Below, piece after piece: positions 8,873-31,926 of a DNA stretch of 38,181 nucleotides; position 1 is the first letter of the stretch, and each line of letters begins with the position of its first letter. Below the pieces are notes generated by a model. That model was not told the origin of the DNA and searched no databases. It worked only from the letters and a program-made list of their open reading frames with translations. The stretch is taken from the NCBI GenBank assembly GCA_049301335.1, contig JBAQKV010000073.1:1-38181 (forward strand), given 5' to 3'. A program made the position numbers and the translations under genes. The DNA is from Patescibacteria group bacterium (GTDB taxonomy: Bacteria; Patescibacteriota; Gracilibacteria; BD1-5; UBA2023).

Positions 8873-11353
8873 ATGGCTCTCAAGTGCGGTACCGACATGG
8901 AGTTCGAAGATTTCCGTTCCGGAGGCGAAAAAATCGCCCCCGGACGGATTTTGCCGTCCGTTCCCGAGAACGGTCTCGAAGTCCCGAAAGCGGCGTCGTT
9001 TACCGATCTCTTAGCGGTTCTTCGTACGAAAACGGCCGAAGATATCGTCTCCATCCTTGCCAACCAGGAAGCCGAAGGGCTGTACGGAACGCCCGAATCC
9101 ACCATCCGCAACGTCGCTTCGGACGTCGAAGAAACCGATAAGGAGTTGGCGTATTCGCTCTACGTCGCCAATTGGGAAAAATTCCGTGACGAGGATTCCC
9201 TCGGAAGGATCGTCGAGTTGGCATTGAAAACCGGACGCACGACCGACGCTTTCAAATACGCGCGCATCGCCCAATACCTGGGGGAAGATTTCAATCCTTT
9301 CTCCTTGATTTCGGCAATCGACTACGCTCGCGGAGGAGCTTTCGTCGAATCGGTCCTTGCCGGCGCCATCGTTCGCGATCCCAACCGCGTGCCGTACCTT
9401 TCCGATAAGGAAACCGCGCGCTTTCTCAAGGGCAGCCGCGAATTCGACGAGGCCGAATTGAAAAATCTGGACGAAAAATCGAAAGAAGCGTGGGAGATAA
9501 AACTTCGCGGACTCGAATACCGCGGACTTACCTTGCTCGATCCCGTGGCCGTACGTTCCTACGTTCGGGCTTTGTCGGACATCGCGAGCGGCAGTGCGGA
9601 AGTCGAAGGCGGCGCGAGCCGTTTTCTTGCCGAACACGCCTGTTCGGCCCCGTCCGCCGTCGCCGAGGCGCACTACGGTTTCGTCACGGGCGGCGAATCG
9701 ATCGTCACCGACGACCGCACGACGGTCGCGGACACCCTCTACCGCCGTTTCGCGCAGGTTTCCGAACACTTCCTCGATCACCGTTTCCTCGACCTTTTCG
9801 AGGAACTCCGCATGTTGTTCACGTTGCTCGACGCGCCGCTTCCGGCGTATTCTTTCGGGAAAATCGTCGAATCGCTCAAAACGCAGGAGAAGTTCTATGC
9901 CGAATTTCCGCCCTCGGTCATCGATTTCCGCAACCGCCTCCTCGCCGAACTTTCGTCCGCGTACGGAAGCGCGTACTATCCTCGCGTGAAAGCCTGGGCT
10001 TTCGGACGGAAAATGCCGTTCAGGATGCGCAACCACGGAGTGGGCGCCCTTCTGCTCGTCGACGCCCTCGCGCACGAAGAAGAGCTCACGCAGGAGATCG
10101 CCAACATGGCCCATAAGCTCTGGGATCTTCCGGTCATTCCCGAGGTCGCGTCGCTCATCGCCTTCGGTTTCGCGGCGAAAAACGAATATTCTTCGGCCGC
10201 CGAATGGCTTTCGCGTTCGAATCTCGACGATTCGGAAAACTCTGCGCTCCTTCTGAGGATCGTCGCGCAGTTCCGCGAACTTTCGCCCACCGCCATCGAC
10301 GCTTTCAAGGCCTGAGCGCCCATCGTCCGCCCTTCCGCCGAACACGCGCTTTCGCGCGTCCGCTCGATCGTGGCGAATTACGAAGCGCCGCTCGCGAACG
10401 AAATGCTCGGCGACAGCGAAGTGGGATTCTGAGATCCGGCCAAGGCGCTCGGGCATTACGCCGAAGCGTACCGATTAGGGAACGTGCCGGCGTTGAAGAA
10501 GCTCGCCGATCTCGAATACGCGATGGGGCGGTTCGACGAGGCCGTCGACCATTACGGCGCGCTCTACCTCGACCCCCGGTATGCCGCCGAAGTCGCCCCG
10601 AGACTATGTCTGGACGCTTGCGAGAAGGGCCGCATGGCCGCCGCGAAGGAATATTATGACAAGATCGACGCGTCCGCTCCCGAGAACTTCGGCGCGGTCG
10701 CCGAATACCACTCCTATGCCGGGGACCTGTTTTCCGGAATGTGCGTCCTTTCGCCGCATCCGGGAGTCCTTTTCGGGGATTTGTCCCCGGAGCTCCGCCG
10801 CGAATACGAAGCCTACGCCGACTCGCTCGTCGAGGACGTTCCCGCCGACGGGAAACTGAAAGAAATCCCGTCCGCGGAAACCTTCCCGGCGAAACTCGTC
10901 GCGCTCCGCGCTTCCGCGGTGACGTTCCTCAGGGGTGCGGAAGCCGGGGAACGGTATTTCCGTTTCGTATCCGACGCGGTGGTCCTCTCCGAAGATACCG
11001 ACCGGCAAGAAGAAATCGACGTGACCGTCATCGGCGCTTTGGCTCCGTGCCACGACGAAGGGGCCATCGGTTTCGCCACGTACGGCGAAGAGGCCAAAGA
11101 CGACCGCGAACAGTCGCTCATCGACCTGCTCGCGACCGACGCCCGTCTGCTCGCCGAAACGTACCGTGAATGCGCGACCGATCCGGCACGCCGGACCGCG
11201 TATTCGTCGATGCTCTGCCGGCTGTCCGATTTCTTCGCCAGCCACGATCCCGAACTCTCCGGATTCTTCAGGGAAGCCGGGGCGCTTGCGACCGGCGGGG
11301 TCGAATTCGATACCGAAGGCGAGGGGGCTCCGAGTTCCGCGATCCTGCACTAG
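8873..11353 (+). CDS. Large TPR-like/helical-repeat protein (826 aa if two in-frame UGA are read)
   Basis: ORFs 8873..10315 and 10484..11353 share one frame. The 168-nt gap has no TAA/TAG and reads as coding: '...AFKA[TGA]APIVRPSAEHALSRVRSIVANYEAPLANEMLGDSEVGF[TGA]DPAKALGHYAEAYRLGNVPALKKLADLEYAMGRFDEAVDHY'. The TGA codons are at 10313-10315 and 10430-10432. TAG stop. Confidence 0.6.
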
Positions 11354-11397: not shown

Positions 11398-11448
11398 TTC
11401 GAGTTTCAGCGTTCCCGCTCCTGAACGGATGATTTTTTATAAATTGTT

Positions 11449-11476
11449 TTGACAACACTTAATAGGCACATATATT
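11449..11476 (+). promoter_or_regulatory. Sigma70-like promoter of the pncA operon
   Basis: TTGACA (11449-11454), 16-nt spacer, TATATT (11471-11476), in an AT-rich island within a GC-rich genome. Confidence 0.5.
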
Positions 11477-11479
11477 GCA

Positions 11480-11505
11480 AGTGTATTAAGTACACGTAAT
11501 AGAAA
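11480..11505. promoter_or_regulatory. Operator-like motif, copy 1 (AGTGTATTAAGTACAcgTAATAGAAa)
   Basis: Starts 4 nt after the -10 box. It is 23/26 identical to 26844-26869. The core TGTA-N5-TACA is an inverted repeat. Confidence 0.5.
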
Positions 11506-11575
11506 GCGGAGACGGAAAGAATCAGGTTTGCTGATGACATGAAGCACCGATTCCCATTCCGCGCGTCCTATAATA

Positions 11576-11590
11576 AGTGTAATAAATACA
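11576..11590. promoter_or_regulatory. Operator-like motif, copy 2 (AGTGTAATAAATACA)
   Basis: Follows a TATAAT hexamer (11569-11574). Same AGTGT-N-TACA core as copy 1. Confidence 0.4.
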
Positions 11591-11612
11591 TTTACATAAT
11601 AAACGCAGGATT

Positions 11613-12212
11613 ATGAAAAACCAAGCCCTCATCGTCGTCGACTACCAGAAAGACTTCATCGACGGTTCCCTCGCCGTAACCGGGGGAGCGGAACTCGCGC
11701 CGAGAATAGCCCGGCTCGTCTCGGAATACCGCGCCAAATCCGGAATGGTCATCGCCACCCGCGACTGGCACCCGCAAAAATCCGTCCACTTCGACAGCTG
11801 GCCGATCCACTGCGTAGCCGGACCCCGGGGTGCCGAATACGGCGAAATCGACACATCCGCCATCGACGTCGAAATCTTCAAAGGATACATGAACACGCAC
11901 GACGGGTACTCGGGATTCGAAGGGGTTAGTGCCCTCATCGGAAGTCCGCAAGACGGATACGAAAAGGCCCCGGGCGCCAAGACGCTCGAAGAAGTCCTCG
12001 CCGAATCGAGAATCCGCATCGTCCGCATCGTCGGTCTCGCTACCGACTTCTGCATCAAGGCTACCGCACTCGACGCCGCCAAGCTCCGAAACGGGGGAAC
12101 CCTCGACCGCGTCATCGTCCAACGCTCCGGCATCGCCGCGGTGAACCTCAAAGAAGGCGACGGCGAACGCGCCATCGAAGAAATGCTCGCCGCCGGAATA
12201 GAAATCGAATAA
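11613..12212 (+). CDS. pncA: Nicotinamidase/pyrazinamidase (isochorismatase family)
   Basis: 'ALIVVDYQKDFIDG', the metal-site-like 'TRDWHPQKSVHF', and the catalytic-Cys context 'GLATDFCIKATALDA'. TAA stop. Confidence 0.85.
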   Translation: MKNQALIVVDYQKDFIDGSLAVTGGAELAPRIARLVSEYRAKSGMVIATRDWHPQKSVHFDSWPIHCVAGPRGAEYGEIDTSAIDVEIFKGYMNTHDGYSGFEGVSALIGSPQDGYEKAPGAKTLEEVLAESRIRIVRIVGLATDFCIKATALDAAKLRNGGTLDRVIVQRSGIAAVNLKEGDGERAIEEMLAAGIEIE

Positions 12213-12224
12213 CCATCTCATCCC

Positions 12225-13721
12225 ATGCTCGCTCCCGCTTCCAAATTCGACGCTTCCGCCTATGCGGACGCCCGCTTCAATTTCCCGGAAATCTCGTACG
12301 CCGATTTCGAATCCATCGACGATCTCGACCTCCGCAAGGAAATCGCCGGACTCAACAAGATCCTCCTCACCGACACCTACAACCGCACCATGGCGCACAC
12401 CCGGGGCGAGATGGGAAAAAAAGAGGAAACCTATACGCTCACGTTCCGCAAGCCGCTTTACGAAGGCGCGCCCATCGTCGCCTACGGCGTCCGCAACATC
12501 GTGAAACGCGTGCTCGGCCGCCGCATCAGCGAAGCCGAACTCGAATTCGCCCGCGACTTCTTTGAGGCCCAGACGAAAAAGGGCGGAAACGGCTACTTCG
12601 ACTACGAAGCTTGGGCGAAGGTCGTCCGCGAAAACGACGGGTACATGCCCATTACCGTCCGCGCAGTGGAAGACGGGACCTTGGTCAAGGCCGGCGAACC
12701 GGTCCTCTCGGTTACCGGACCGGGCGAAATGGCCGCGCACTTCGAACCGATTTTCCTCCGCCTCTTCTACCAGAGCGCGGTCGCGACCGAACTCAACGTT
12801 CTTGAGAACATTCTCGGATCGGGTCGCGTAGTCGAATTCGGAAGCCGCTCCGCTTGGAACAACGGCACCCACTTCGATGCGCTCGAGGCCCTCGCCGTAG
12901 GCGGCGGGCTCGTAGGAACCTCCGACGATGCCGGGGCTGCCGCCTTGCCGAACCTCCGCGCAGCGGGAACCATCGCGCACCGTTTCCTCGCGAGCTACCC
13001 CACCGAAGAAGGGGCGTTCCGCGAAGCGATCGAAAAGAACGAGAAGATCGCCCTCCTCATCGACCTCATCGAACCGTACCGCGGCATCGACCGGGCCGTA
13101 GCACTCAAGAAGGAATACCGCGCGAGCGGAAAAGCCGTCTGGATGCGCCTCGACTCGGGCGACCTCGCCGCCCAGGCCGTCTACGCATTGGAACAGTGCC
13201 GCGACCGCGGAATGCTCGACCCGGCGTTGGACAAGGTGGTCGTCGCCGACATTTCCTCCGTCGCAGACGTCATCCGCGTGGAAGAAGCGGTCGCCGCGGC
13301 CGGATTCGACCCGAAGCAGTTCATCGTCTACGGACTCGGCGGTCTCTTGGTCGCGACCAAGAAGACCCGCGACGCGCTCTCTGCCGCGTTCAAGCTCACC
13401 GAAACTGAAGACGGCGTCACCGGAAAACTCTCCGCCGACGCCGGCAAGGTCGCGGTACCGGGCAAGATCAACGTCGAAATCCGCGATAACGAACGCGTCA
13501 TCGTCAACGAAGCCGAAGAAATCCAAGGCAAGCGCCTCTTGAAACTCGTCTACTCCAGCGGCAAGACCTTCTTCGATGAAAAGAGCGACGTCAAGGCCGT
13601 GGAAGCCGCCCGCGAACGCGTGAAGGCCAACGTTTCCGACGCTCTCAAGCCCACCGTTTGGTCCGACCGTGTCAAAAAGGATTTGGAAGACGTGAAAGAA
13701 CGTTTCTTGAAGATGGCGTAG
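12225..13721 (+). CDS. Nicotinate (or nicotinamide) phosphoribosyltransferase family protein (498 aa)
   Basis: 'LLTDTYNRTMAH' is the N-terminal signature of the NAPRT/NAMPT family, and 'MRLDSGDL' is also present. The gene lies directly downstream of pncA. TAG stop. Confidence 0.7.
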   Translation: MLAPASKFDASAYADARFNFPEISYADFESIDDLDLRKEIAGLNKILLTDTYNRTMAHTRGEMGKKEETYTLTFRKPLYEGAPIVAYGVRNIVKRVLGRRISEAELEFARDFFEAQTKKGGNGYFDYEAWAKVVRENDGYMPITVRAVEDGTLVKAGEPVLSVTGPGEMAAHFEPIFLRLFYQSAVATELNVLENILGSGRVVEFGSRSAWNNGTHFDALEALAVGGGLVGTSDDAGAAALPNLRAAGTIAHRFLASYPTEEGAFREAIEKNEKIALLIDLIEPYRGIDRAVALKKEYRASGKAVWMRLDSGDLAAQAVYALEQCRDRGMLDPALDKVVVADISSVADVIRVEEAVAAAGFDPKQFIVYGLGGLLVATKKTRDALSAAFKLTETEDGVTGKLSADAGKVAVPGKINVEIRDNERVIVNEAEEIQGKRLLKLVYSSGKTFFDEKSDVKAVEAARERVKANVSDALKPTVWSDRVKKDLEDVKERFLKMA

Positions 13722-13809: not shown

Positions 13810-14841
13810 ATGCGAAACGCCCCTATCGAAGAAAGAGTCGAATCCATGCTCCTTTGAGTCGCCCTGGGCGACTCTTTGGGCGTTCCGACGGAAATGAAGA
13901 CGGCGGAAAAGATCCGCGAGCGGTTCGACCGCGTGACGGGATTCTTGCCGACCCGGCATAACGCCATGTTCGTTAAGGACGGGTTTCCCGCCGACAGCGA
14001 CGAAGGAGGATATTACAGCGACGACACCGTTCTCACCTTCGCCACGCTGCGGGCATTGACGAAGGACGGGCATCTCGACCAACGGAACGTCGTCCGCGAA
14101 CAGCTCGCCTCGGCCGCAAGGTGGCCGTACGGCTTCGGCAGGGCGACCACCGAGGTTTTCGCGACGATAAGGCAGGGCGGAAAGTTGCTCGAAAGCGGAA
14201 TCGAGACCGCGGGAAACGGCGTGCTTATGAAACAATCGCCCCTCGCGGCGTACGAGGCGCTCTCGGGAACGAGTTTCGGCGCTATGGAACAGCACGTGGC
14301 CGATTATGCCCGCGTGACCCATAAATCGCCGGAAGCCGTAGTCGCCTCGTTGGTGCACCACAAAGTTTTGGTCGATCTCCTTCTGAATGGCGAATTCGAC
14401 GCGCACGCCGCGTTGACCAACGCGTGGAGTTACGCCAAGCGCTTTGAAAACGGGGATGCCGCGAAATGACTGAAAGACCGGGTGACGGACCGAATCGAAC
14501 GACTCATGGACATGACCGACGCTTCGACCGGCAGAGTGGTTTCTTCGGACGCCGTCATCAAATCCGCTTTCGATTGGGGTGACAAGATGGGCGCGTCATG
14601 CTATGCGCTTACGACCTTGGGCATTTCGTACGCCCTGTTCATGAGGAATCCCCATTCGATCGACGCCATGTTCGACGCGGTGAATTTCGGCGGCGATACC
14701 GACAGCTACGCGGGAATCGTAGGATCGATGCTCGGCGCCGCGAACGGAAAATTTTATTCGGACGAACTCTTCGACGGGGTAGTCGAAGGAGATGCGTTGA
14801 AAAGGGGGGCGAGGGAGTTTTTGGGGAGGTTTCGAAAATAG
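13810..14841 (+). CDS. ADP-ribosylglycohydrolase family protein (343 aa, two in-frame UGA)
   Basis: One frame runs from ATG 13810 to TAG 14841. The N-terminus 'ERVESMLL[TGA]VALGDSLGVPTEM' matches the family motif G-a-l-l-G-l-a-v-GDalG-p-E, with the TGA (13855-13857) on the conserved Gly. A second TGA lies at 14467-14469. The C-terminal 'GGDTDSYAGIVGSMLGAANG' family motif is downstream of it, so both halves are needed for one domain. Confidence 0.8.
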
Positions 14842-14856
14842 AACGTAAGCATTTGT

Positions 14857-14884
14857 AAAATCCCCCCGTTTTCACGGGGGGATT
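14857..14884. terminator. Hairpin terminator between convergent genes (better T-tract on the minus strand)
   Basis: Sequence aaaATCCCCCCGttttcaCGGGGGGATt. Confidence 0.6.
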
Positions 14885-14927
14885 CATATTGCGTCCGAAT
14901 CTGGGAAATGCTATCGCATCCCCAAAC

Positions 14928-15659
14928 TTAGGACTGTCCTTCTACATTGGCCGCGGCGGGTGCCTGGGCTTCTGCGTTGGGCGTTTCTTCAACCACTGCG
15001 GCCGTTTCGGCCACTTCCGCAGCCGGGGTTTCCGACACGATCACCGCGTCTTCGACCGCAGCGCCTGCTTCTGCCGCCGCGGTTTCTTCGACCACGGCCG
15101 TGCCTTCAGCACCTTCGGCAACTTCCGCCTTGGCTTCGTCCGCGGCCGGGGTTTCCGGTGCGGCTTCGACCACGGCTTCCGCTGCAGCGCCTTCGACGGC
15201 GACGATGACTTCGCCTTCGAGCACGGTTTCACCCGCACCTACGGCTTCGACTTGCGCGACTTCTGCCACTGCGACGGCTTCGATCACTTCAACCGTTTCT
15301 TCGACCACGGTTTGTGCAGGAGCTTCTTCAACCGCTGCGACCGCTGCCGGAGTTTCCGACACGATTACCGTTTCTTCGACCACGGTTTCGTCCACTGCGC
15401 CGGCAACGACCGCCGGGGTTTCTTCGACTGCGGCTGCCGCACCTTCGGCAACTTCCGCCTTGGCTTCGTCCGCAGCCGGGGTTTCCGGTGCGGCTTCGAC
15501 CACGGCTTCCGCTGCGGTGCCTTCGCCGGCGACGATGACTTCGCCTTCGATAACCGGGGTGCCGGCATCGACGGCCACGACCTGGGCGGTCGCGTTTTCG
15601 TTGTTGTCGTTTTGACCCGCTACGCCTTCTGCTTGACCGGCGTTTTCGTTATTTTCCAT
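14928..15659 (-). CDS. Highly acidic Ala/Glu/Val/Thr-rich repeat protein (243 aa). No signal peptide.
   Basis: AGGAG lies 7 nt upstream of ATG 15659. TAA stop at 14928, followed by a terminator. There is an internal duplication of about 110 aa ('EGEVIVA.EG.AAEAVVEAAPETPAADEAKAEVAEGA' occurs twice). The mirror ORFs on the plus strand lack an SD. Confidence 0.55.
   Translation of the reverse strand: MENNENAGQAEGVAGQNDNNENATAQVVAVDAGTPVIEGEVIVAGEGTAAEAVVEAAPETPAADEAKAEVAEGAAAAVEETPAVVAGAVDETVVEETVIVSETPAAVAAVEEAPAQTVVEETVEVIEAVAVAEVAQVEAVGAGETVLEGEVIVAVEGAAAEAVVEAAPETPAADEAKAEVAEGAEGTAVVEETAAAEAGAAVEDAVIVSETPAAEVAETAAVVEETPNAEAQAPAAANVEGQS
15027..15550. repeat. Intragenic tandem duplication, period about 330 bp
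   Basis: 15111-15220 and 15441-15550 differ at about 4 of 110 positions. The flanking segments at about 15027 and about 15350 are more diverged. Confidence 0.8.
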
Positions 15660-15743
15660 CACGTATCTCCTTTTGTTGGCACTTCCGGGGAATCCGAAAG
15701 TCGGCTGAGTCTACGGTTTTGCCCACAGGAGTCAAAAGAATGA

Positions 15744-15774
15744 GAAATCCCCCCGCTTTCGCAGGGGGATTTTT
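15744..15774. terminator. Hairpin terminator
   Basis: Sequence gaaATCCCCCcgctttcgcaGGGGGATtttt, with T/A runs on both sides. Confidence 0.65.
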
Positions 15775-16656: not shown

Positions 16657-18468
16657 TTACGCCATTTTCCGCAGTTTCGCGATTTCGGCGCGCATATTTT
16701 CCCGAGCGCGTTCTTGAAACCGTTCTTTTCCGTACTGCGTGACGAACAGGTTTTCGTCGGCGATCCATTTTTCGAGCATTTCCAGACGTCCTTTGACGAA
16801 TTCCCGCCCCGGATAGATGCCGAATTCCGCGACGATGTCGGAAACGTAGAGCGCGTAGCGTTCCGGCGAAGAACCCAAGATGGACATGTCCAAGTCGTGG
16901 AGGATCATCGAGAGGTATTCTTTGGGCTTTTCCCCGCTCGCGTGCGCGGTGTCGCGCACTAACTGGTACACGTTTTCGATGCGGTGGTTGCCGACCCCGC
17001 GCGACGAGAGGGCGCGCTTGGCGTATTCGGCGCTGTGGATTTCGTTGTCGCGGTAATACGTCTTTTTCACTTCGTAGACCGAATCGTGGAAGAGGATGGC
17101 CACGGCGAGCGTCGCCATCTCTTCTTGCGGCATGTCGGTGGCGACGGCGCGTTCGAAAAGGTTCCCGAGGAGTTCGACGATGTGTTCCCAGGTGTGGTAG
17201 AAGCGGTGGGGCTCCTCGTGTTTTTTCTTGAGTTCCGCCACGAGCGCCGCGGATTCGAGTTCGCTGATTCCGAACATTCTCAAGGCCATTTGAGCGCGAA
17301 GTTCGCCGAAAACGTCGATCTTGGCGAGGATGTCGAAAAGCGCTTTTCTCGCGTCGACCGGGCTTTCGCCGTTGTCGTACGCGAGGACCGAGCCGTTCTT
17401 ATTCTCTTCGATGGTCGACTCCAATTTGGCGATCTTGTCTTCTCCCGACATCTGGAGCGAGAACATTTTGAGCACGTCTTCGCGCGACATCGTGCGCCCG
17501 CCTTTCGCGTAGCGGGGAATAACGCGTTCCACGCGGGTTTCCACCGGAGCCGTGACGACCACGGCGTGGTGGTTGCCCAAATGCGTGAGCCCGAATTCCA
17601 CGAGGAGCGCCGCGTCGACGAGCACGATGCCCTGCTTTCCCGCGACCATGTCGCCATAGCGGAGGAGCATGGGCTTGCGGAGGATCGAATTGAGCGTTTC
17701 GACGCTTCCGGGATTTTCCCGAACGATGCGCGCGAGTTCGGCGCGGTCGATGAAACCGTCCGCCGTCACGACCGATTCGCCGAACGCTTCCGCCACTTTT
17801 CGGCGGGTTTTGTCGTAAATCGGATCGGTGAGGGAAAAATAGATTTCGTGCGCGATGGAGTCGTAGTCGACGTACGTACAGGGGACTCAGAGTTCGCGTG
17901 AGACGTCCGCGATTTTGCGGGAAAGCGTGGATTTTCCCGCACCCATTTCGCCCGTGACGCAGACCGGATACTGGCGGATGATTCGCGATTCGAGCGCCTG
18001 TTTGACGGTCGACGAAACGAAGCTCGAAATGTCGTGCCCGACCTTGAGACATTCCTTCACGCCCGAGGAACTGATTTCCGCGTACGGCGAATCGGCTTCG
18101 GCGTGGATGACGTCGATGAAAAGGTCCGGATTTTCCCGAAGGTAGTAGAACTTGAGCGTGGTTTCGGCGGCTTCGTCCAAGACGTTGCGCACTCCGCGGA
18201 CGAGATTGGGGATGTCCTCGCGCATCATGTACTTGGCGAGCGATCCCGGAACGAGGCGCACGTCTTCCGGCGGAACGTCGAGGCTTTTCTGCGCGAGGCG
18301 GAGGCGTTCCCATTGGGCGAAGGCGTAGTTCTTCTTGGGGTCGTTCGCGATGCCGACGAGAACCCTGCCTTTATATTTCTCGCGGGCCTTGTCGAGAACC
18401 GAAGAATGACCGAGCGTCCACGGATCGGCGGAGAGGGCGTAGAGTGCTTCGGGCGGGAGCGGGCGCAT
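16657..18468 (-). CDS. Fusion protein (603 aa): phosphopantetheine adenylyltransferase-like domain, dephospho-CoA kinase, and a C-terminal HD-domain phosphohydrolase. One in-frame UGA.
   Basis: N-terminal 'LSADPWTLGHSSVLDKA' resembles the CoaD (H/T)xGH nucleotidyltransferase motif. The P-loop 'VTGEMGAGKSTL' is followed by 'SREL[TGA]VPCTYVDYDSIAHEIY', which aligns to CoaE 'fadLGinvIDADiiA', putting the TGA (17887-17889) on the Gly. The rest of CoaE continues in ORF 16657..17796, in the same frame. The HD domain shows 'YHTWEHIVELL...ILFHDSVYE'. TAA stop. Confidence 0.8.
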
Positions 18469-26723: not shown

Positions 26724-26740
26724 AGCGGAAAAGCCATTCG

Positions 26741-26770
26741 AACGCCCCGGAAACGGGGCGTTTTTTTTTA
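26741..26770 (+). terminator. Rho-independent terminator
   Basis: Sequence aaCGCCCCGgaaaCGGGGCGttttttttt. Confidence 0.8.
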
Positions 26771-26811
26771 AGATGGCCCCATGCTCCGCCGCCCTATTTT
26801 CATTATTTATT

Positions 26812-26839
26812 TTGACTTTCTTTTTCGTCTGCGTACATT
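26812..26839 (+). promoter_or_regulatory. Sigma70-like promoter of the PP2C-kinase-isochorismatase-vWA operon
   Basis: TTGACT (26812-26817), 16-nt spacer, TACATT (26834-26839), in an AT-rich island. Confidence 0.5.
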
Positions 26840-26843
26840 TACG

Positions 26844-26869
26844 AGTGTATTAAGTACATTTAATAGAAC
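26844..26869. promoter_or_regulatory. Operator-like motif, copy 3 (AGTGTATTAAGTACAttTAATAGAAc)
   Basis: 23/26 identical to 11480-11505, at the same position relative to the -10 box. Confidence 0.5.
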
Positions 26870-26910
26870 GGCACGGACAAATATTCACTCGTCCGATTTG
26901 CATTCAAACA

Positions 26911-26925
26911 AGTGTTATTAATACA
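26911..26925. promoter_or_regulatory. Operator-like motif, copy 4 (AGTGTTATTAATACA)
   Basis: Same AGTGT...TACA core, 67 bp downstream of copy 3. Confidence 0.4.
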
Positions 26926-26927
26926 TT

Positions 26928-26948
26928 CGTTCATTAACATTCGCGAAA
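26928..26948 (+). promoter_or_regulatory. Conserved leader element CGTTCATTAACATTCGCGAAA
   Basis: 19/21 identical to 31934-31954. Both lie about 17-20 nt upstream of a start codon. Confidence 0.4.
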
Positions 26949-26967
26949 CTACATTTAGGAGGCTTTC

Positions 26968-27747
26968 ATGCGAAACCTATTCCAAACCGCGGGAGCCTCC
27001 GTTCCCGGAAGCGACCACACCCAAGTGGGGAAGCCCTTTTGGAAAAACGATCAGGACGCCTATTTCCTGTGCCGAGAGGAGTTTTTCACCATCGGGATCG
27101 TCGCCGACGGCTGCGGATCCGGCGAATCGAGCGAAGTGGGCGCCAAAATCGGCGTCCGGCTCCTCGCCAAAGAAATCGCCGATTCCCTCATCCGCGAACT
27201 CCCGCTTTTCGAACCGGTCATCCCCTGGTGCCTCATATCCTGCCGTCTTGACGCTTGGATTGCCAACCTGGCGGAAGCCATGGGTGGAAGGACTGCGAAG
27301 ACGGTGGAGGAATTCTTCCTGTTTTCCTTCGTCGGATTCGTGATCACTCCCACGAAAACCACGGTTTTCCACTGCGGCGACGGCAGTTACGCGGTGAACG
27401 GACAAGTGACCAATCTCGGCCCCTTTCCGAACAACGCGCCGCCGTATTTCGCCTACCGGACGCTCCGGATGAATCCGGGGCTCGAAATCGGTACGGTCGA
27501 ATTCGCTACGGAAGACGTCGAATCGGTCGCCGTCGCCACTGACGGGACCGACTACTTCGCCGACTATCCCAACACCCTTGGGGAATGGCTTTCGACTGAC
27601 GCCGTTTTTAAAAATCCCGACGCGCTTCGCAGGCGGCTCGCCGTCATGAACCGCGAACGGATTATGAACGGTCTGCTCATCCCCGGTCCGCTGAAGGATG
27701 ACACGACCCTCGCCATCGCGAGGAGGAACGTCGCCTCATCGGATTGA
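26968..27747 (+). CDS. PP2C-family (PPM) serine/threonine phosphatase (259 aa)
   Basis: 'NDQDAYF', 'GIVADGCGSG', 'HCGDGSY', 'VATDGT' and 'DDTTLA' fit the PPM metal-binding aspartate pattern. AGGAGG lies 6 nt upstream. The stop is TGA 27745-27747, with an in-frame TAA four codons later (27757-27759). Confidence 0.8.
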   Translation: MRNLFQTAGASVPGSDHTQVGKPFWKNDQDAYFLCREEFFTIGIVADGCGSGESSEVGAKIGVRLLAKEIADSLIRELPLFEPVIPWCLISCRLDAWIANLAEAMGGRTAKTVEEFFLFSFVGFVITPTKTTVFHCGDGSYAVNGQVTNLGPFPNNAPPYFAYRTLRMNPGLEIGTVEFATEDVESVAVATDGTDYFADYPNTLGEWLSTDAVFKNPDALRRRLAVMNRERIMNGLLIPGPLKDDTTLAIARRNVASSD

Positions 27748-27825
27748 AATTTCTTTTAAGCCGCAAGGCTCGCCAAACCGCCGTTCATTCCCAATAACGA
27801 GGAAGGACGACAAAGGAGAAACGAC

Positions 27826-29712
27826 ATGGAAATCCTGCTCGACGGAAAACTCCTCCGCCTGAACCCCACGAAAACTGTGGGCAAGGGCGGGGAAGCCGAC
27901 GTATACGGCATCGGGTCCGGGCGGGCGGTGAAGATTTTCAAAACCCCCGACCACCCCGATTACGAAAACAATCCTACGGAAATCGAAGCGGCCCGCGCCC
28001 GCATCGCCGAACACCAGACCAAACTCGCGGCGTTCCCCAAAGGAATGCCCGGAAGCGTGGTCGTTCCGGCTTCGCTCGCGCTCGACGCCAAGACGAAGAA
28101 GGTCGTCGGCTACGCCATGCCGCTCGTTGCGAACGCCGAGGCCCTGCTCCGGTTTTCGGAACGTTCGTACCGCGAAAAGAACGCCGTAGGAGACACGGAC
28201 GTCGTCCGTCTCTTCGAACGCCTCCGTCTCGCGGTATCCGGCGTCCACCGTGCCGGTGCGGTCATCGGCGACTTCAACGACCTGAACGTGCTCGTGACTC
28301 CCAAGTTCGAGCCGTATCTCATCGACGCCGACAGCATGCAGTTCGGAAACTACCTCACCCGGGTTTTTACCGCGCGCTTCGTGGACCCGATTAAGTGTGA
28401 TAAAAACACTCCATCAATCCAACTCGCGACGCCGCACGACGAAAACTCGGATTGGTACGCCTACGCGGTCATGCTGATGCAATCGCTTTTGTTCGTCGGC
28501 CCGTACGGCGGCGTCCACGCCCCCGGCGGATCGAAACCCAAGCTCAAGGATTGGGAACGGATGCGGAAACGGGTGACGGTCTTCGATTCCGAAGTCCGCT
28601 ATCCGCGACCCGCCCGCCACTATTCCGTATTGCCGGATGACCTCCTCCACGCGTTCGAAGAAATCTTCGTCCGCGACCGGAGAGGGGAGTTCCCGGCGTC
28701 GCTCGTATCGGGCATCCGGTTTTCGAAGTGTCCGGTTTGCGGAAAGGTCCATGCCCGCGCGGCATGTCCCGACTGCGTTCCGGCCACCCCTTCGATGACC
28801 AAGGAAGTCGTGACGGCCAAGGTCGAAGCCCTCAAGGTTTTCGATGCCTCCGGCCGGATCGCCTACGCCACCGTCCAGAACGGCCGGGTGAAATACGTCG
28901 TCCACCAGGGCGACGGGTATTACCGGGAAACGGGGGAAAAGGTCGCGTCGGGAGACGCGGACCCTACGCTCCGCGTACGGATTTCGGGCAAGAAGACCGT
29001 CCTCGCGAAAGCGGGAACGGCGGTCGCGCTGTCGGAAGACGGCAAGGCCGACCGGATCGCCTGCGATTCGTTCCAGAACAAGGTTTCGGGCGTCGACGGC
29101 AATTCACGTCACGTATTCGTATCCCAAGACGGGTTCCTGAAGCGCTTCGGCGACGACGGGCTCGGCATGGAATACGGCGAAACCTTCGGGGAAATCCTCC
29201 AAGGGCAAACCCTCTTCTGGGTTTCGGACCGCATGGGATTCGGATTCTACCGGGCCGGAATGCTCTCGCGGGCGTTCGTCTTCGACCCGGAAATCCGTTC
29301 GCTCGGAAACGAAGCGAAGCTCCCCGCCATGTCCGGATCGCTATTGGACGCCACGGTCGCGTTTTCCGAAACGCACTGCTGGTTCCTCGCGTCGCTCGAC
29401 GTATCGGGCCGCCGTGTCAACCGCGCGGCGATGTTCGAGAAATCGGGGGCTCTCGTCGCTACCGCCGAAGCCGAATCCGGCGACGGTTCGTGGCTCGGGA
29501 CCATCCGCGGCAAATGCGCCGCGGGCAAACAGCTCTTTTCCCCGACCGACGACGGCATCGTCCGTACCGAGGTCTCGGGGCAGGGAATGGCGGCGACGAA
29601 AGTTTTCGCCGACACTTCCCGGTTCGTCGACTCAGAAACGAAACTGCTTTTCGGAAACGACGGGATCTACGCCGTATCCGCTTCACGCATCTGGCGCATC
29701 CGCGCCAAATAA
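27826..29712 (+). CDS. Atypical protein kinase-like protein with a central Zn-ribbon and a roughly 300-aa C-terminal domain (628 aa)
   Basis: G-loop/Lys 'VGKGGEADVYGIGSGRAVKIF', catalytic-loop-like 'HRAGAVIGDFNDLNVLV', and DFG-equivalent 'YLIDADSMQF'. 'CPVCGKVHARAACPDC' is a four-Cys ribbon. TAA stop. Confidence 0.75.
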   Translation: MEILLDGKLLRLNPTKTVGKGGEADVYGIGSGRAVKIFKTPDHPDYENNPTEIEAARARIAEHQTKLAAFPKGMPGSVVVPASLALDAKTKKVVGYAMPLVANAEALLRFSERSYREKNAVGDTDVVRLFERLRLAVSGVHRAGAVIGDFNDLNVLVTPKFEPYLIDADSMQFGNYLTRVFTARFVDPIKCDKNTPSIQLATPHDENSDWYAYAVMLMQSLLFVGPYGGVHAPGGSKPKLKDWERMRKRVTVFDSEVRYPRPARHYSVLPDDLLHAFEEIFVRDRRGEFPASLVSGIRFSKCPVCGKVHARAACPDCVPATPSMTKEVVTAKVEALKVFDASGRIAYATVQNGRVKYVVHQGDGYYRETGEKVASGDADPTLRVRISGKKTVLAKAGTAVALSEDGKADRIACDSFQNKVSGVDGNSRHVFVSQDGFLKRFGDDGLGMEYGETFGEILQGQTLFWVSDRMGFGFYRAGMLSRAFVFDPEIRSLGNEAKLPAMSGSLLDATVAFSETHCWFLASLDVSGRRVNRAAMFEKSGALVATAEAESGDGSWLGTIRGKCAAGKQLFSPTDDGIVRTEVSGQGMAATKVFADTSRFVDSETKLLFGNDGIYAVSASRIWRIRAK

Positions 29713-29860
29713 GAAATCGCGTCTGACTTCGGAATTCGCGTTCAGGACTCCGCGCCTCGTTCAACGTACCTATTCGTACGTATCGCTCCGGTGCTCGTCC
29801 TTCGCACGAATTCTATCGTCATCCGCGATTTCGACCAACTTCAACTCAAGGAGAAACATC

Positions 29861-30904
29861 ATGGCAAAACTGCCTTCTTTCTACGACCCCGCCCACGCCG
29901 CCAAGTGGGGATACGATCCGAACCTCCGCGTTCTTGCGCAGCAGGCCCAGGATTTCCGCACTTCCGGCAAGATCAAGGCCTCCGGCCTCGACGGCAAACG
30001 CGTCGCGCTTCTGCTCATCGACGTGCAGCGCGACTTCTGCTTCCCGCAGGGCACGCTCTACGTGGGTGGCCGTTCGGGAACCGGCGCCATCGACGACAGC
30101 CGCCGCATCGCCGAGTTCGTCTACCGCGAAATGGGCGCCCTGACTTCGGTCATCCCGACCATGGACACCCACTTCCCGTTCCAGATCTTCACCCCGTCTT
30201 TCTGGGTGGACCAAGACGGTAACGAACTCCTGCCGCACGACATGATCGACGGCAACCTCACCATCCTCCGCGGCGGCCAGCCTACCGGCCTGAAAGCCCG
30301 GCCGAACCCGGCCATGGCTTCCTGGCTCTCGGGCGGCAACTACGGTTGGCTCTTGAAACAGGCCGAGCACTACGTTTCGGAACTCGCGAAGGGCGGCAAA
30401 TACCTGCTCTACGTGTGGCCAGAACACTGCGTGCTCGGTTCGATGGGGCACTCCCTCGTCGGCGTCGTGCAGGAAGCCCGCATGTTCCACGCCTACGTCC
30501 GCGGTTCGCAGAACGAAGTCGAGGTGAAAGGGGGCAACCCCCTCACCGAAAACTATTCCGTTCTCGGGCCGGAGGTCGTAAGCCGTTGGGACGGCAAGGG
30601 CGCGATCGGGCAGAAGAACGCCCGCTTCGTCAAAACCCTGCTCGACTACGACGCCGTCGTCATCGCCGGCCAAGCCTCGTCGCACTGCGTCAAATCCACC
30701 ATCGACGACCTCCTCGGCGAAATCCAAGCCAAGGATCCGGAACTCGCGAAGAAGGTGTACGTCCTTCGGGACTGTACCTCCGCCGTGGTCGTTCCGGGGG
30801 TCATCGATTTCACTCCCCAGGCGGAAGCGGCCCTCGACCGTTACGCCGCGGCCGGCATGAACATCGTGGAGTCGACCTCCCCGATGCTCTCCTGGCTGAA
30901 ATAA
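29861..30904 (+). CDS. Isochorismatase-family hydrolase, long nicotinamidase-like form (347 aa)
   Basis: I place the start at ATG 29861, with AAGGAG 7 nt upstream; the track's 496-aa ORF starts in the kinase gene. 'ALLLIDVQRDFC' is present, and 'IAGQASSHCVKSTI' gives the catalytic Cys context. TAA stop. Confidence 0.8.
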   Translation: MAKLPSFYDPAHAAKWGYDPNLRVLAQQAQDFRTSGKIKASGLDGKRVALLLIDVQRDFCFPQGTLYVGGRSGTGAIDDSRRIAEFVYREMGALTSVIPTMDTHFPFQIFTPSFWVDQDGNELLPHDMIDGNLTILRGGQPTGLKARPNPAMASWLSGGNYGWLLKQAEHYVSELAKGGKYLLYVWPEHCVLGSMGHSLVGVVQEARMFHAYVRGSQNEVEVKGGNPLTENYSVLGPEVVSRWDGKGAIGQKNARFVKTLLDYDAVVIAGQASSHCVKSTIDDLLGEIQAKDPELAKKVYVLRDCTSAVVVPGVIDFTPQAEAALDRYAAAGMNIVESTSPMLSWLK

Positions 30905-31008
30905 TCCGGATACGGGTTCCGGAGCTTTCTTCCTCGCTCCGTCCTGCGGAGTCGCTCGCGCGAAACTCCGCCACCCGTTCCAAACCCATTCCATCAAGGA
31001 GAAACATC

Positions 31009-31794
31009 ATGAATTCCCAAAGCGTAAATTCCCTCTTCGGCAACGCCGCTTCCGACGGCGCTATCGGCGCCGGTGCCGTGGCCGTGCTTACCGCTCCCGA
31101 TCTCGGGGCGCAAATCCAGGCCGGCCTTGGCGTCTCGGTCGACGACGTTTCGGCCAGCGAAGTCGTGCTCGTCACGCTTCTCGTCGACGACTCCGGTTCC
31201 ATCGACGCGTCGGGGAACGAACAGACCGTCCGGGACGGATGCAATCTGGTCATGCAAGCGCTCGCTTCCTCGAAGCAGAACGACGGCATCCTGGTTTCCA
31301 TCCGCTACCTGAACGGCACCGTCCTCACCCCGTTCGTGCCGCTGGACCAAGCTCCGGTGCTCGATTCGCAGAACTACCGGGCCACCGGCGGCACCCCGCT
31401 CTACGACCAATCGGTAGTAGCGCTCGGGGGCGTCATCGCCAAAACCCAGGAGTTCCTCGATTCGGGCGTCGGTTGCCGGTCGGTCAGCCTCGTCGTCTCC
31501 GACGGCGCCGACATGCATTCCCGCCGTAACAAGGCCGCCGACGTCGCCAAGGTCGTCCGCGACATGCGCCTCACCGAGTCGCACATCGTGGCCGCCATGG
31601 GCATCGAAGACGGCTGTACCGATTTCCGCAAGGTCTTCGGCGACATGGGCGTGGATGCCAAGTGGATTCTCACCCCGGGCGACAGTCCGGCTGAAATCCG
31701 CAAGGCGTTCCAGGTCTTCTCGCAGTCGGCGGTCCGTGCTTCCCAGAGCGCCGGGTCGTTCAGCCAAGCGGCCGGTGCCGGCTTCACTTCGTAG
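31009..31794 (+). CDS. vWA-domain protein (TerY-like, cytoplasmic, 261 aa)
   Basis: MIDAS 'LLVDDSGSI' (DxSxS), 'TGGTPL' and 'VVSDGAD'. No signal peptide. The 18-nt ribosome-binding region tcAAGGAGaaacatcATG is the same as for the preceding gene. TAG stop. Confidence 0.8.
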   Translation: MNSQSVNSLFGNAASDGAIGAGAVAVLTAPDLGAQIQAGLGVSVDDVSASEVVLVTLLVDDSGSIDASGNEQTVRDGCNLVMQALASSKQNDGILVSIRYLNGTVLTPFVPLDQAPVLDSQNYRATGGTPLYDQSVVALGGVIAKTQEFLDSGVGCRSVSLVVSDGADMHSRRNKAADVAKVVRDMRLTESHIVAAMGIEDGCTDFRKVFGDMGVDAKWILTPGDSPAEIRKAFQVFSQSAVRASQSAGSFSQAAGAGFTS

Positions 31795-31867
31795 TTTCGC
31801 GAATCGAAAAACAAAACCCGAAAACCCCGAATCCCAGCGTTCGAAAGAATCGCGAAGGATCGGAAAA

Positions 31868-31900
31868 TTCCCCCGTCCCGAAAGGAGCGGGGTTTTATTT
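31868..31900 (+). terminator. Rho-independent terminator after the vWA gene
   Basis: Sequence CCCCGTCCcgaaaGGAGCGGGGttttattt, with one bulge. Confidence 0.6.
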
Positions 31901-31926
31901 GACTATCTCAATACGGTATTTATAGT
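31899..31926 (+). promoter_or_regulatory. Sigma70-like promoter of gene 31971
   Basis: TTGACT, 16-nt spacer, TATAGT, followed by the conserved leader CGTTCATTCACATTCTCGAAA (31934-31954). Confidence 0.5.

Follow-up and report, generated by a model that had tools for sequence, protein, structure and literature searches.

Paired palindromic boxes as candidate NrtR operators of NAD salvage genes and of a PP2C-kinase-nicotinamidase-like-vWA cassette in a Patescibacteria genome

Two operons preceded by paired palindromic boxes

The DNA analyzed here, a stretch of 38,181 nucleotides (nt) from a Patescibacteria group bacterium (assembly GCA_049301335.1, contig JBAQKV010000073.1, positions 1 to 38,181; referred to in full as the window), harbors two operons, each of which is preceded by a sigma-70-like promoter and by two copies of a palindromic motif. 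The first of these, the pncA operon, encodes the nicotinamide adenine dinucleotide (NAD) salvage functions of a nicotinamidase and a nicotinate/nicotinamide phosphoribosyltransferase (NAPRT)-family enzyme and probably also an ADP-ribosylglycohydrolase (ARH). The second, the PP2C operon, encodes a four-gene cassette composed of a PP2C-family phosphatase, a protein kinase, a nicotinamidase-like protein, and a probable von Willebrand factor A (vWA)-domain protein. The four motif copies, designated O1 (promoter proximal) and O2 in each operon, are proposed below to represent operators of an NrtR-family repressor. The features concerned are as follows, with no strand assigned to the palindromic sites and with scores from the matrix described below.

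11449..11476, forward strand: sigma-70-like promoter of the pncA operon, TTGACA-16-TATATT, 11/12 consensus positions
11478..11498: candidate operator O1 of the pncA operon, CAAGTGTATTAAGTACACGTA, exact core, matrix score 26.8
11574..11594: candidate operator O2 of the pncA operon, TAAGTGTAATAAATACATTTA, matrix score 35.3, the highest of the window
11613..12212, forward strand: pncA-type nicotinamidase of the isochorismatase family, 199 amino acids (aa), Pfam PF00857 E = 2e-17
12225..13721, forward strand: NAPRT-family enzyme (pncB-like), 498 aa, Pfam NAMPT_N and NAPRTase_N
13876..14841, forward strand: ARH of the DraG/ARH family, N- and C-terminal parts of PF03747 in one frame
26812..26839, forward strand: sigma-70-like promoter of the PP2C operon, TTGACT-16-TACATT, 9/12 consensus positions
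26842..26862: candidate operator O1 of the PP2C operon, CGAGTGTATTAAGTACATTTA, exact core, matrix score 29.4
26909..26929: weaker candidate operator O2 of the PP2C operon, CAAGTGTTATTAATACATTCG, matrix score 21.0
26968..27759, forward strand: PP2C-family protein phosphatase, PF13672 E = 1.7e-13
27826..29712, forward strand: protein kinase, 628 aa, LanL kinase domain match E = 5.7e-9
29861..30904, forward strand: nicotinamidase-like isochorismatase-fold protein, 347 aa, with an insertion of approximately 75 residues, aligning with the PncA of the window
31009..31794, forward strand: probable vWA-domain protein, 261 aa, final gene of the cassette, with a metal ion-dependent adhesion site (MIDAS) motif DxSxS...T...D

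An initial annotation of this DNA had described four copies of the motif, good promoters 5′ of the two strong copies, AT-rich islands at both regions, and an isochorismatase-family enzyme in each operon, all of which were borne out by the present analysis. Sequence and mismatch searches located an exact repeat, AGTGTATTAAGTACA, twice in the window, at positions 11480 to 11494 and 26844 to 26858, and a second copy in each region (AGTGTAATAAATACA at 11576 and AGTGTTATTAATACA at 26911). Both promoters stand alone in their 1-kb neighborhoods, that of the pncA operon (-35 hexamer at 11449 to 11454, -10 hexamer at 11471 to 11476) being the sole promoter-like site between positions 11000 and 12000, and that of the PP2C operon being located downstream of the terminator (26740 to 26763) of a citrate transporter gene. 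When the window was divided into 200-nt bins, the GC content was lowest in those at 11401 to 11600 and 26801 to 27000, being 0.375 compared to 0.59 overall, and the gene labels were supported by Pfam and NCBIfam matches coupled with an alignment of catalytic residues.

The recurrence of the motif is significant. The 15-mer has six matches in the window at up to three mismatches, where shuffled sequences give an expectation of 0.10, and the exact core TGTA-N5-TACA has three (0.05 expected), all inside the two regions, the exact T-GT-A-N5-T-AC-A core being positioned at 11482, 11578, and 26846. In its full extent, the motif spans 21 bp and is palindromic (TAAGTGTA-N5-TACAnTTA, core GT-N7-AC). 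Twenty sites of the clade yield the consensus TAAGTGTAnTAAATACAnTTA, with GT and AC invariant in 20/20, and in the 8+5+8 register of the palindrome 78% of the symmetric positions are complementary, compared to 21 to 53% in slid registers. A 21-bp matrix, which was built from 15 sites of other genomes with no window sequence whatsoever and which amounts to 27.4 bits when symmetrized, places the four sites at ranks 1 to 4 of the window. All four exceed the maximum observed over 100 simulated windows (16.2), and the next match scores 11.9. No box was detected by matrix and promoter scans at the other strong promoters and AT-rich islands of the window.

Two lesser matches were considered. A partial copy overlying the -35 hexamer at 11441 to 11461 (repeat family D13) has a matrix score of 8.2, under the null maximum, and was rejected as a site. 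The fifth-best match of the window (TAAGTGTGATAAAAACACTCC, the one scoring 11.9) is located inside the kinase gene at 28392 to 28412, the orthologous position of which carries a perfect core with typical flanks, attaagTGTAATCAATACAc, in the kinase gene of a relative (L004, positions 14965 to 14977); this match could represent an internal operator or merely conserved coding sequence.

With regard to placement, O1 of the pncA operon starts 2 nt past the -10 hexamer, such that the predicted transcription start falls inside it, and O2, which is predicted to be part of the 5′ untranslated region, ends 19 nt before the ATG. In the PP2C operon, O1 starts 3 nt past the -10 hexamer and O2 ends 39 nt 5′ of the ATG. 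Each promoter is thus associated with two boxes, spaced 67 to 100 bp apart.

Conservation of the boxes and of nrtR among relatives

Relatives of the window's genome at 77 to 98% identity, CAYZVC01 at 98% among them, are represented by metagenome-assembled genomes labelled “Candidatus Peribacteria” or Patescibacteria, the loci of which are referred to here by L numbers. Upstream of pncA orthologues (77 to 98% protein identity), both boxes and both promoter hexamers are conserved and the DNA between them has diverged, such that the -35 and -10 hexamers, O1, O2, and the start codon are the only conserved elements across five genomes. The two hexamers are kept in L006, L002, L003, and L004, and in four relatives O1 keeps its spacing from the promoter. 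O2 is kept in these loci and in L008, as opposed to the interval of approximately 70 nt between O1 and O2, which is not. The PP2C promoter is retained in L088 and L004, and its O1 is identical in L088 (an 87% relative).

To assess distribution beyond these operons, a census of exact cores was conducted across 457 kb of the relatives' nonredundant loci with a GC content of at least 0.45, in which “upstream” was defined as within 350 nt. It returned 38 cores, where 4.6 were expected, and 35 of these 38 were located upstream of pncA, nadE, nadD, nrtR, or PP2C. Boxes in the GC-rich clade precede pncA, nadE, and nadD-nudF-nrtR, with single boxes upstream of nadD and nrtR. AT-rich relatives (Gracilibacteria) possess the same core with their own flanks upstream of pncA, the NAPRT gene, nadE, and nrtR. 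The motif is, therefore, conserved at orthologous operons and is not scattered.

The genes which adjoin these boxes in relatives include one for a regulator of the NrtR family. In L002, whose NAPRT-family protein is 90% identical to that of the window, a 240-aa protein harbors the NrtR winged-helix domain (PF21906 NrtR_WHD, E = 2.7e-23), and the NrtR proteins of the relatives combine a Nudix-like N-terminal domain with this winged helix. The L002 protein aligns over its full length (residues 20 to 226) to the AraR structure 5bs6 (E = 7e-29) and to 3gz5 (E = 1e-24). The entries 3gz5 and 3gz6, which we take to be Shewanella oneidensis NrtR, were deposited as “MutT/nudix family protein.” In L060, L061, L089, and L090, homologues with 86 to 90% identity are encoded by the last gene of a nadE-nadK-nadD-nudF-nrtR cluster, in which boxes occur upstream of the nadD-nudF-nrtR genes. 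A homologue with 65% identity is encoded in L058, on the same 230-kb contig as L004, and boxes are also found upstream of nrtR in L030, L034, L036, L040, L064, L068, and L071.

The position of nrtR in the closest of these clusters is informative with regard to the window itself. Positions 28819 to 31899 share 88 to 92% DNA identity with L060, in which nrtR is located 7.2 kb downstream of the vWA gene, and the window is collinear with L088, which possesses extra genes in the vWA-nrtR interval. On the basis of this synteny, the window is predicted to end shortly before its own nrtR, which is probably located just beyond the right end, at an estimated distance of 10 to 15 kb.

The cassette is associated with NAD genes irrespective of the boxes. 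The nrtR gene is found directly upstream of it in the metagenomic contigs L062, L064, L068, L071, L074, L081, and L084, and exact boxes are present 5′ of the PP2C gene in all of these other than L084, in which no exact core was found. The pncA gene, the NAPRT gene, or the ARH gene adjoins the cassette in L064, L087, and L063, and in L004 the pncA and PP2C operons are only some 2 kb apart. Furthermore, the cassette is located directly upstream of, and is codirectional with, NAPRT, nadE, and nadK genes in at least 11 SR1/Gracilibacteria-type loci, the cassette-NAPRT loci including that of the complete SR1 genome CP006913. Three independent lines, namely, conserved boxes, nrtR adjacency, and NAPRT adjacency, thus connect the cassette to NrtR and NAD at the level of sequence comparison, the latter two being independent of the motif. 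The cassette is accordingly predicted to belong to an NAD/ADP-ribose regulon, its function being putative. Literature searches combining NrtR with PP2C and NrtR with von Willebrand returned nothing relevant, and this link of the cassette to NAD appears to be unreported.

NrtR as the proposed repressor, weighed against its rivals

NrtR operators are known as 21-bp palindromes, with a GT-N7-AC core common to the motifs, which overlap the promoter or are positioned between the promoter and the start codon, a placement taken to imply repression that is lifted by ADP-ribose (Rodionov et al., PMC2330246). Because the motif described here fits the 21-bp and GT-N7-AC signature, shares this placement, and co-occurs with nrtR and NAD genes in relatives, we assign it to NrtR. 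We consider it probable, at approximately 0.85, that the four sites represent operators of an NrtR-family repressor and are lineage-specific members of the known operator family.

According to this proposal, an NrtR dimer would bind the 21-bp palindrome, with O1, 2 to 3 nt past the -10 hexamer, covering the transcription start, and with O2 lying in the 5′ untranslated region, 19 to 39 nt before the start codon. Bound NrtR would block initiation and/or early elongation. Upon NAD cleavage, ADP-ribose would build up and bind to the Nudix-like domain, and the ADP-ribose-bound NrtR would be released, thus derepressing both operons. The first of these would comprise pncA, the NAPRT gene, and probably the ARH gene, and the second would comprise the PP2C, kinase, nicotinamidase-like, and vWA genes. 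The same boxes would control nadE(-nadK) and nadD-nudF-nrtR in relatives. The identity of NrtR as the binding protein, its action as a repressor, and the role of ADP-ribose as effector are predictions of this model. The initial annotation had interpreted the motif as an inverted repeat suited to a dimeric repressor at the transcription start and had postulated a regulon shared by the NAD salvage/ARH and PP2C-kinase-isochorismatase-vWA operons. The former view is supported by the NrtR signature and the position of O1, and the latter is supported by nrtR and NAPRT adjacency and by the conserved boxes.

A number of observations weigh against this assignment. The 38-kb window itself contains no NrtR gene as judged by tblastn, in agreement with the earlier remark that no regulator gene is evident beside the sites, and that its genome encodes NrtR is deduced from synteny with L060 and L088. 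Individual sites of the PP2C operon may be weak: the core of O2 has one mismatch in the window and two in L088, and O1 is degenerate in L004, where it carries a 3-nt insertion. The O2 position in L004 is occupied by a perfect core, TGTATCTGATACA. The strong site is O1 in the lineage of the window and O2 in that of L004. Site quality has therefore been swapped between lineages, a pattern that resembles the turnover of sites which remain under selection. A further point is that the likeness of the two O1 sites, over 26 nt, reaches past the palindrome (TAATAGAA) in a manner which the NrtR model does not explain. A promoter-proximal box with its flanks, TACAAGTGTACTTATTACATTTAATA, is likewise identical over 26 nt before pncA in L003 (9147 to 9172) and before nadE in L058 (3512 to 3537), and the constraint on O1-type sites therefore extends past the palindrome, as does the TAATAGAA tail. 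Finally, NrtR-family members may sense other ligands, AraR being a regulator of arabinose utilization (PMC4666351), and the effector therefore cannot be assumed from family membership.

Among the rival explanations, that which best survives is the action of a different, non-NrtR dimeric transcription factor on the same NAD genes, resulting in the same repression with another regulator and effector; we regard it as improbable. Arms of the TGTA/TACA type occur in more than one regulator family, the window encodes no regulator, and the assignment to NrtR is built on co-occurrence, all of which would be compatible with such a factor. Against this, the boxes of many lineages are located directly 5′ of nrtR or in the nrtR-PP2C interval, and a box at the regulator gene itself is the usual mark of a cognate, autoregulated factor. 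The motif also satisfies the NrtR-specific 21-bp and GT-N7-AC rule, and Pfam scans of the window's large open reading frames (ORFs) revealed no other DNA-binding protein. The operator of enterobacterial NadR, an 18-bp TGTTTA-N6-TAAACA palindrome (PMC2330246), was ruled out on the basis of the TGTA/TACA arms and 5-nt center observed here, and no helix-turn-helix-containing NadR was found in the same scans.

The alternative raised by the initial annotation, namely, a 5′-leader RNA element that acts after transcription starts, through a small hairpin or through long-range pairing of O1 with O2, is less probable still and did not withstand closer analysis. Each box can form a hairpin of 6 to 8 bp (-2.6 to -4.7 kcal/mol), and the minimum-energy fold pairs O1 with O2 in both leaders, with z-scores of -3.0 and -2.6. 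These hairpins are weak, however, and two copies of one palindrome are necessarily complementary, the O1-O2 fold thus being an expected by-product. No covariation beyond that of shuffled alignments was detected, the score being 0.081 compared to 0.072 for the shuffles, 134 of 500 of which scored as high. The inner arms are invariant, the outer positions are unpaired in approximately half of the sites with no compensation, and a comparison of four genomes showed no complementarity between the N5 centers of O1 and O2. The existence of single boxes upstream of nadD and nrtR also argues against pairing, and, with the predicted transcription start lying inside O1, the 5′ arm would be missing from the RNA. 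At gathering thresholds, no Rfam family matched any part of the window.

The reading of the motif as a generic repeat, a general promoter-proximal sequence of an AT-poor genome, or a chance resemblance, in favor of which it may be said that both copies lie in AT-rich islands where AT-rich words are likelier, is effectively refuted by the shuffle expectations of 0.05 to 0.10 matches, the separation of the four sites by a matrix trained on foreign sites, the lack of the motif at other promoters and AT-rich islands of the window, the conservation of orthologous positions, and the restriction of 35/38 exact cores to one gene set. Scans of the window for tRNAs and tandem repeats returned nothing relevant.

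Operon products and comparison with known systems

The 199-aa PncA of the first operon matches the NCBIfam nicotinamidase/pyrazinamidase model (E = 1.5e-27). The adjacent NAPRT-family protein matches NCBIfam NAPRTase models with E values down to 2.5e-40, under their curated cut-offs, and, among its named homologues, the nearest belong to Gracilibacteria, Absconditabacteria, and SR1. The ARH gene is followed by a terminator-like hairpin (14857 to 14884), and no promoter-like site was seen in the 155-nt gap which separates it from the NAPRT gene; it probably forms part of the pncA operon. This ARH gene is present in the closest relative, L006, only and not in L002, L003, or L004.

Two neighboring genes may be mentioned. 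A repeat-rich ORF spans positions 14857 to 15773, in which a 164-nt unit is repeated at 85% identity together with many shorter repeats, and it is flanked by near-identical G/C-rich hairpins (14857 to 14884 and 15746 to 15773). The forward frame would specify a Phe/Arg/Gly/Cys-rich product and the reverse frame (14928 to 15662) an Ala/Glu/Val-rich, acidic repetitive protein, the coding strand being ambiguous. Further downstream, on the reverse strand (16657 to 18468; approximately 604 aa), a cytidylyltransferase-like domain of the CoaD/NMNAT type is fused to a CoaE-type P-loop kinase, with C-terminal His/Asp motifs that are putatively HD-like. This fusion gene adjoins NAD genes in L002, L004, and L089, and the matrix scan of the window detected no NrtR box 5′ of it. 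It may function either in coenzyme A synthesis or, in a NadR-like manner, in NAD synthesis.

The genome of the window, at 59% GC, is very probably one in which TGA encodes Gly (code 25) and is rarely used, as suggested by the in-frame TGA codons of relatives, 527 of 656 of which are opposite Gly in window proteins. In-frame TGA codons of the window are located at 14467 to 14469 (forward strand, ARH), 17887 to 17889 (reverse strand, the CoaD/CoaE-like fusion), and 27745 to 27747 (forward strand, PP2C). The ARH is encoded by a single gene if the first of these is translated, and the position of the second is occupied by GGA and GGT in L004 and L024. The third lies four codons 5′ of the TAA/TAG end of the PP2C gene, the product of which comprises 259 aa up to this codon and 263 aa if it is read as Gly, the length called for the L004 orthologue. 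Under such a code, gene calls made with table 11 are interrupted wherever TGA occurs in frame and are unreliable here.

Within the cassette, the 628-aa kinase is predicted to combine a kinase domain of the Hanks type with a CxxC...CxxC zinc ribbon and, at its C terminus, an all-beta domain. Its AlphaFold model (mean predicted local distance difference test score of 88.4) has its best fold matches among PknA/PknB and other protein kinases, at a template modeling score of approximately 0.65 on the target. The Gly-loop, Lys, DxxxxN, and D motifs are invariant in the aligned sequences, and the homologues number more than 1,800. The 347-aa protein has weak matches to PF00857 and to the NCBIfam nicotinamidase model and keeps the nicotinamidase catalytic D-K-C and DxH metal site, D54, D102-x-H104, K223, and C276 being invariant in 12/12 sequences (11 cassette proteins and the PncA of the window). 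For the vWA protein, a profile search returned weak integrin I-domain matches (E of approximately 0.3), and a MIDAS-like DDSGS...GGTPLY...TDGxD pattern is conserved in 12 orthologues. PDB sequence searches with the kinase and with the vWA protein gave no matches.

The nicotinamidase-like and vWA genes are preceded by untranslated gaps of 148 and 104 nt, respectively, and share a 15-nt ribosome-binding context, TCAAGGAGAAACATC plus ATG (29846 to 29863 and 30994 to 31011). A terminator-like hairpin readable on both strands lies at 30905 to 30923. The vWA gene is followed by another terminator-like hairpin (31875 to 31893) and then by a new promoter (31899 to 31926). In the SR1/Gracilibacteria-type loci L009, L011, L016, L018, and L020, the nicotinamidase-like gene of the cassette adjoins the NAPRT gene, and no separate pncA was found within 6 kb of it. 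The 347-aa protein might itself serve as the salvage nicotinamidase in these genomes. PADLOC models gave no meaningful match to a known defense system for the cassette and its neighboring genes. The “ternary system” of Kaur et al. 2020 is said to denote vWA-MoxR-type conflict systems and not the PP2C cassette type.

We tentatively suggest, at slightly less than even odds, that the PP2C, Hanks-type kinase, nicotinamidase-like, and vWA genes form an unrecognized NAD/ADP-ribose module which is a core member of the NrtR regulon across Patescibacteria and which is induced along with NAD salvage once ADP-ribose signals that NAD is being cleaved. Such a module may place a nicotinamidase-type enzyme, acting in nicotinamide removal or salvage, under the control of a phospho-switch, and it could be how the cell responds when its NAD is depleted by an attacking host, phage, or toxin. 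Few recognizable regulators are encoded in the very small genomes of Patescibacteria, and no paper describing an NrtR regulon in this group was found in the literature searched. The candidate regulon is now concrete and its operator is defined in sequence, encompassing pncA-pncB-ARH, nadE-nadK, nadD-nudF-nrtR, and the PP2C cassette. The operator can be scanned for across thousands of metagenome-assembled genomes, and a widespread four-gene cassette without annotated function gains a context in NAD and ADP-ribose homeostasis.

The proposed regulon resembles the NrtR regulons previously described (PMC2330246) with regard to its 21-bp GT-N7-AC operator and the placement thereof at promoters, its pncA, pncB, nadD, and nadE targets, the clustering of nrtR with these targets and under its own box, and a regulator, encoded here in relatives, which couples a Nudix-like domain to a winged helix. 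It differs in that it belongs to GC-rich, Gracilibacteria/Absconditabacteria-related Patescibacteria in which TGA very probably specifies Gly, a group outside that work. It also has its own arm sequence (TAAGTGTA), possesses two boxes per promoter 67 to 100 bp apart, and includes the PP2C-kinase-nicotinamidase-like-vWA cassette, which was not seen in that paper's regulon table. The pncA operon, which ends with a DraG/ARH-family gene, recalls the nrtR1-draG-SCO1765 locus of Streptomyces, in which an NrtR-controlled ADP-ribosylglycohydrolase connects the regulon to reversible ADP-ribosylation (PMC2330246), although the ARH gene of the window follows NAD salvage genes and not nrtR. The full-length alignment of the relatives' regulator to the NrtR-family structures 3gz5/3gz6 and to Bacteroides AraR (5bs6) is accompanied by low sequence identity, and AraR regulates arabinose utilization rather than NAD metabolism (PMC4666351). 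In terms of gene content, the cassette may be likened to Deinococcus DRA0331-0334, in which a vWA protein, a Hanks-type kinase, and PP2C are encoded together (bioRxiv 10.64898/2026.01.23.701218). Unlike that locus, the cassette described here lacks an FHA protein, always includes a nicotinamidase-like enzyme, and is associated with nrtR, with NrtR boxes, and with genes of NAD salvage.

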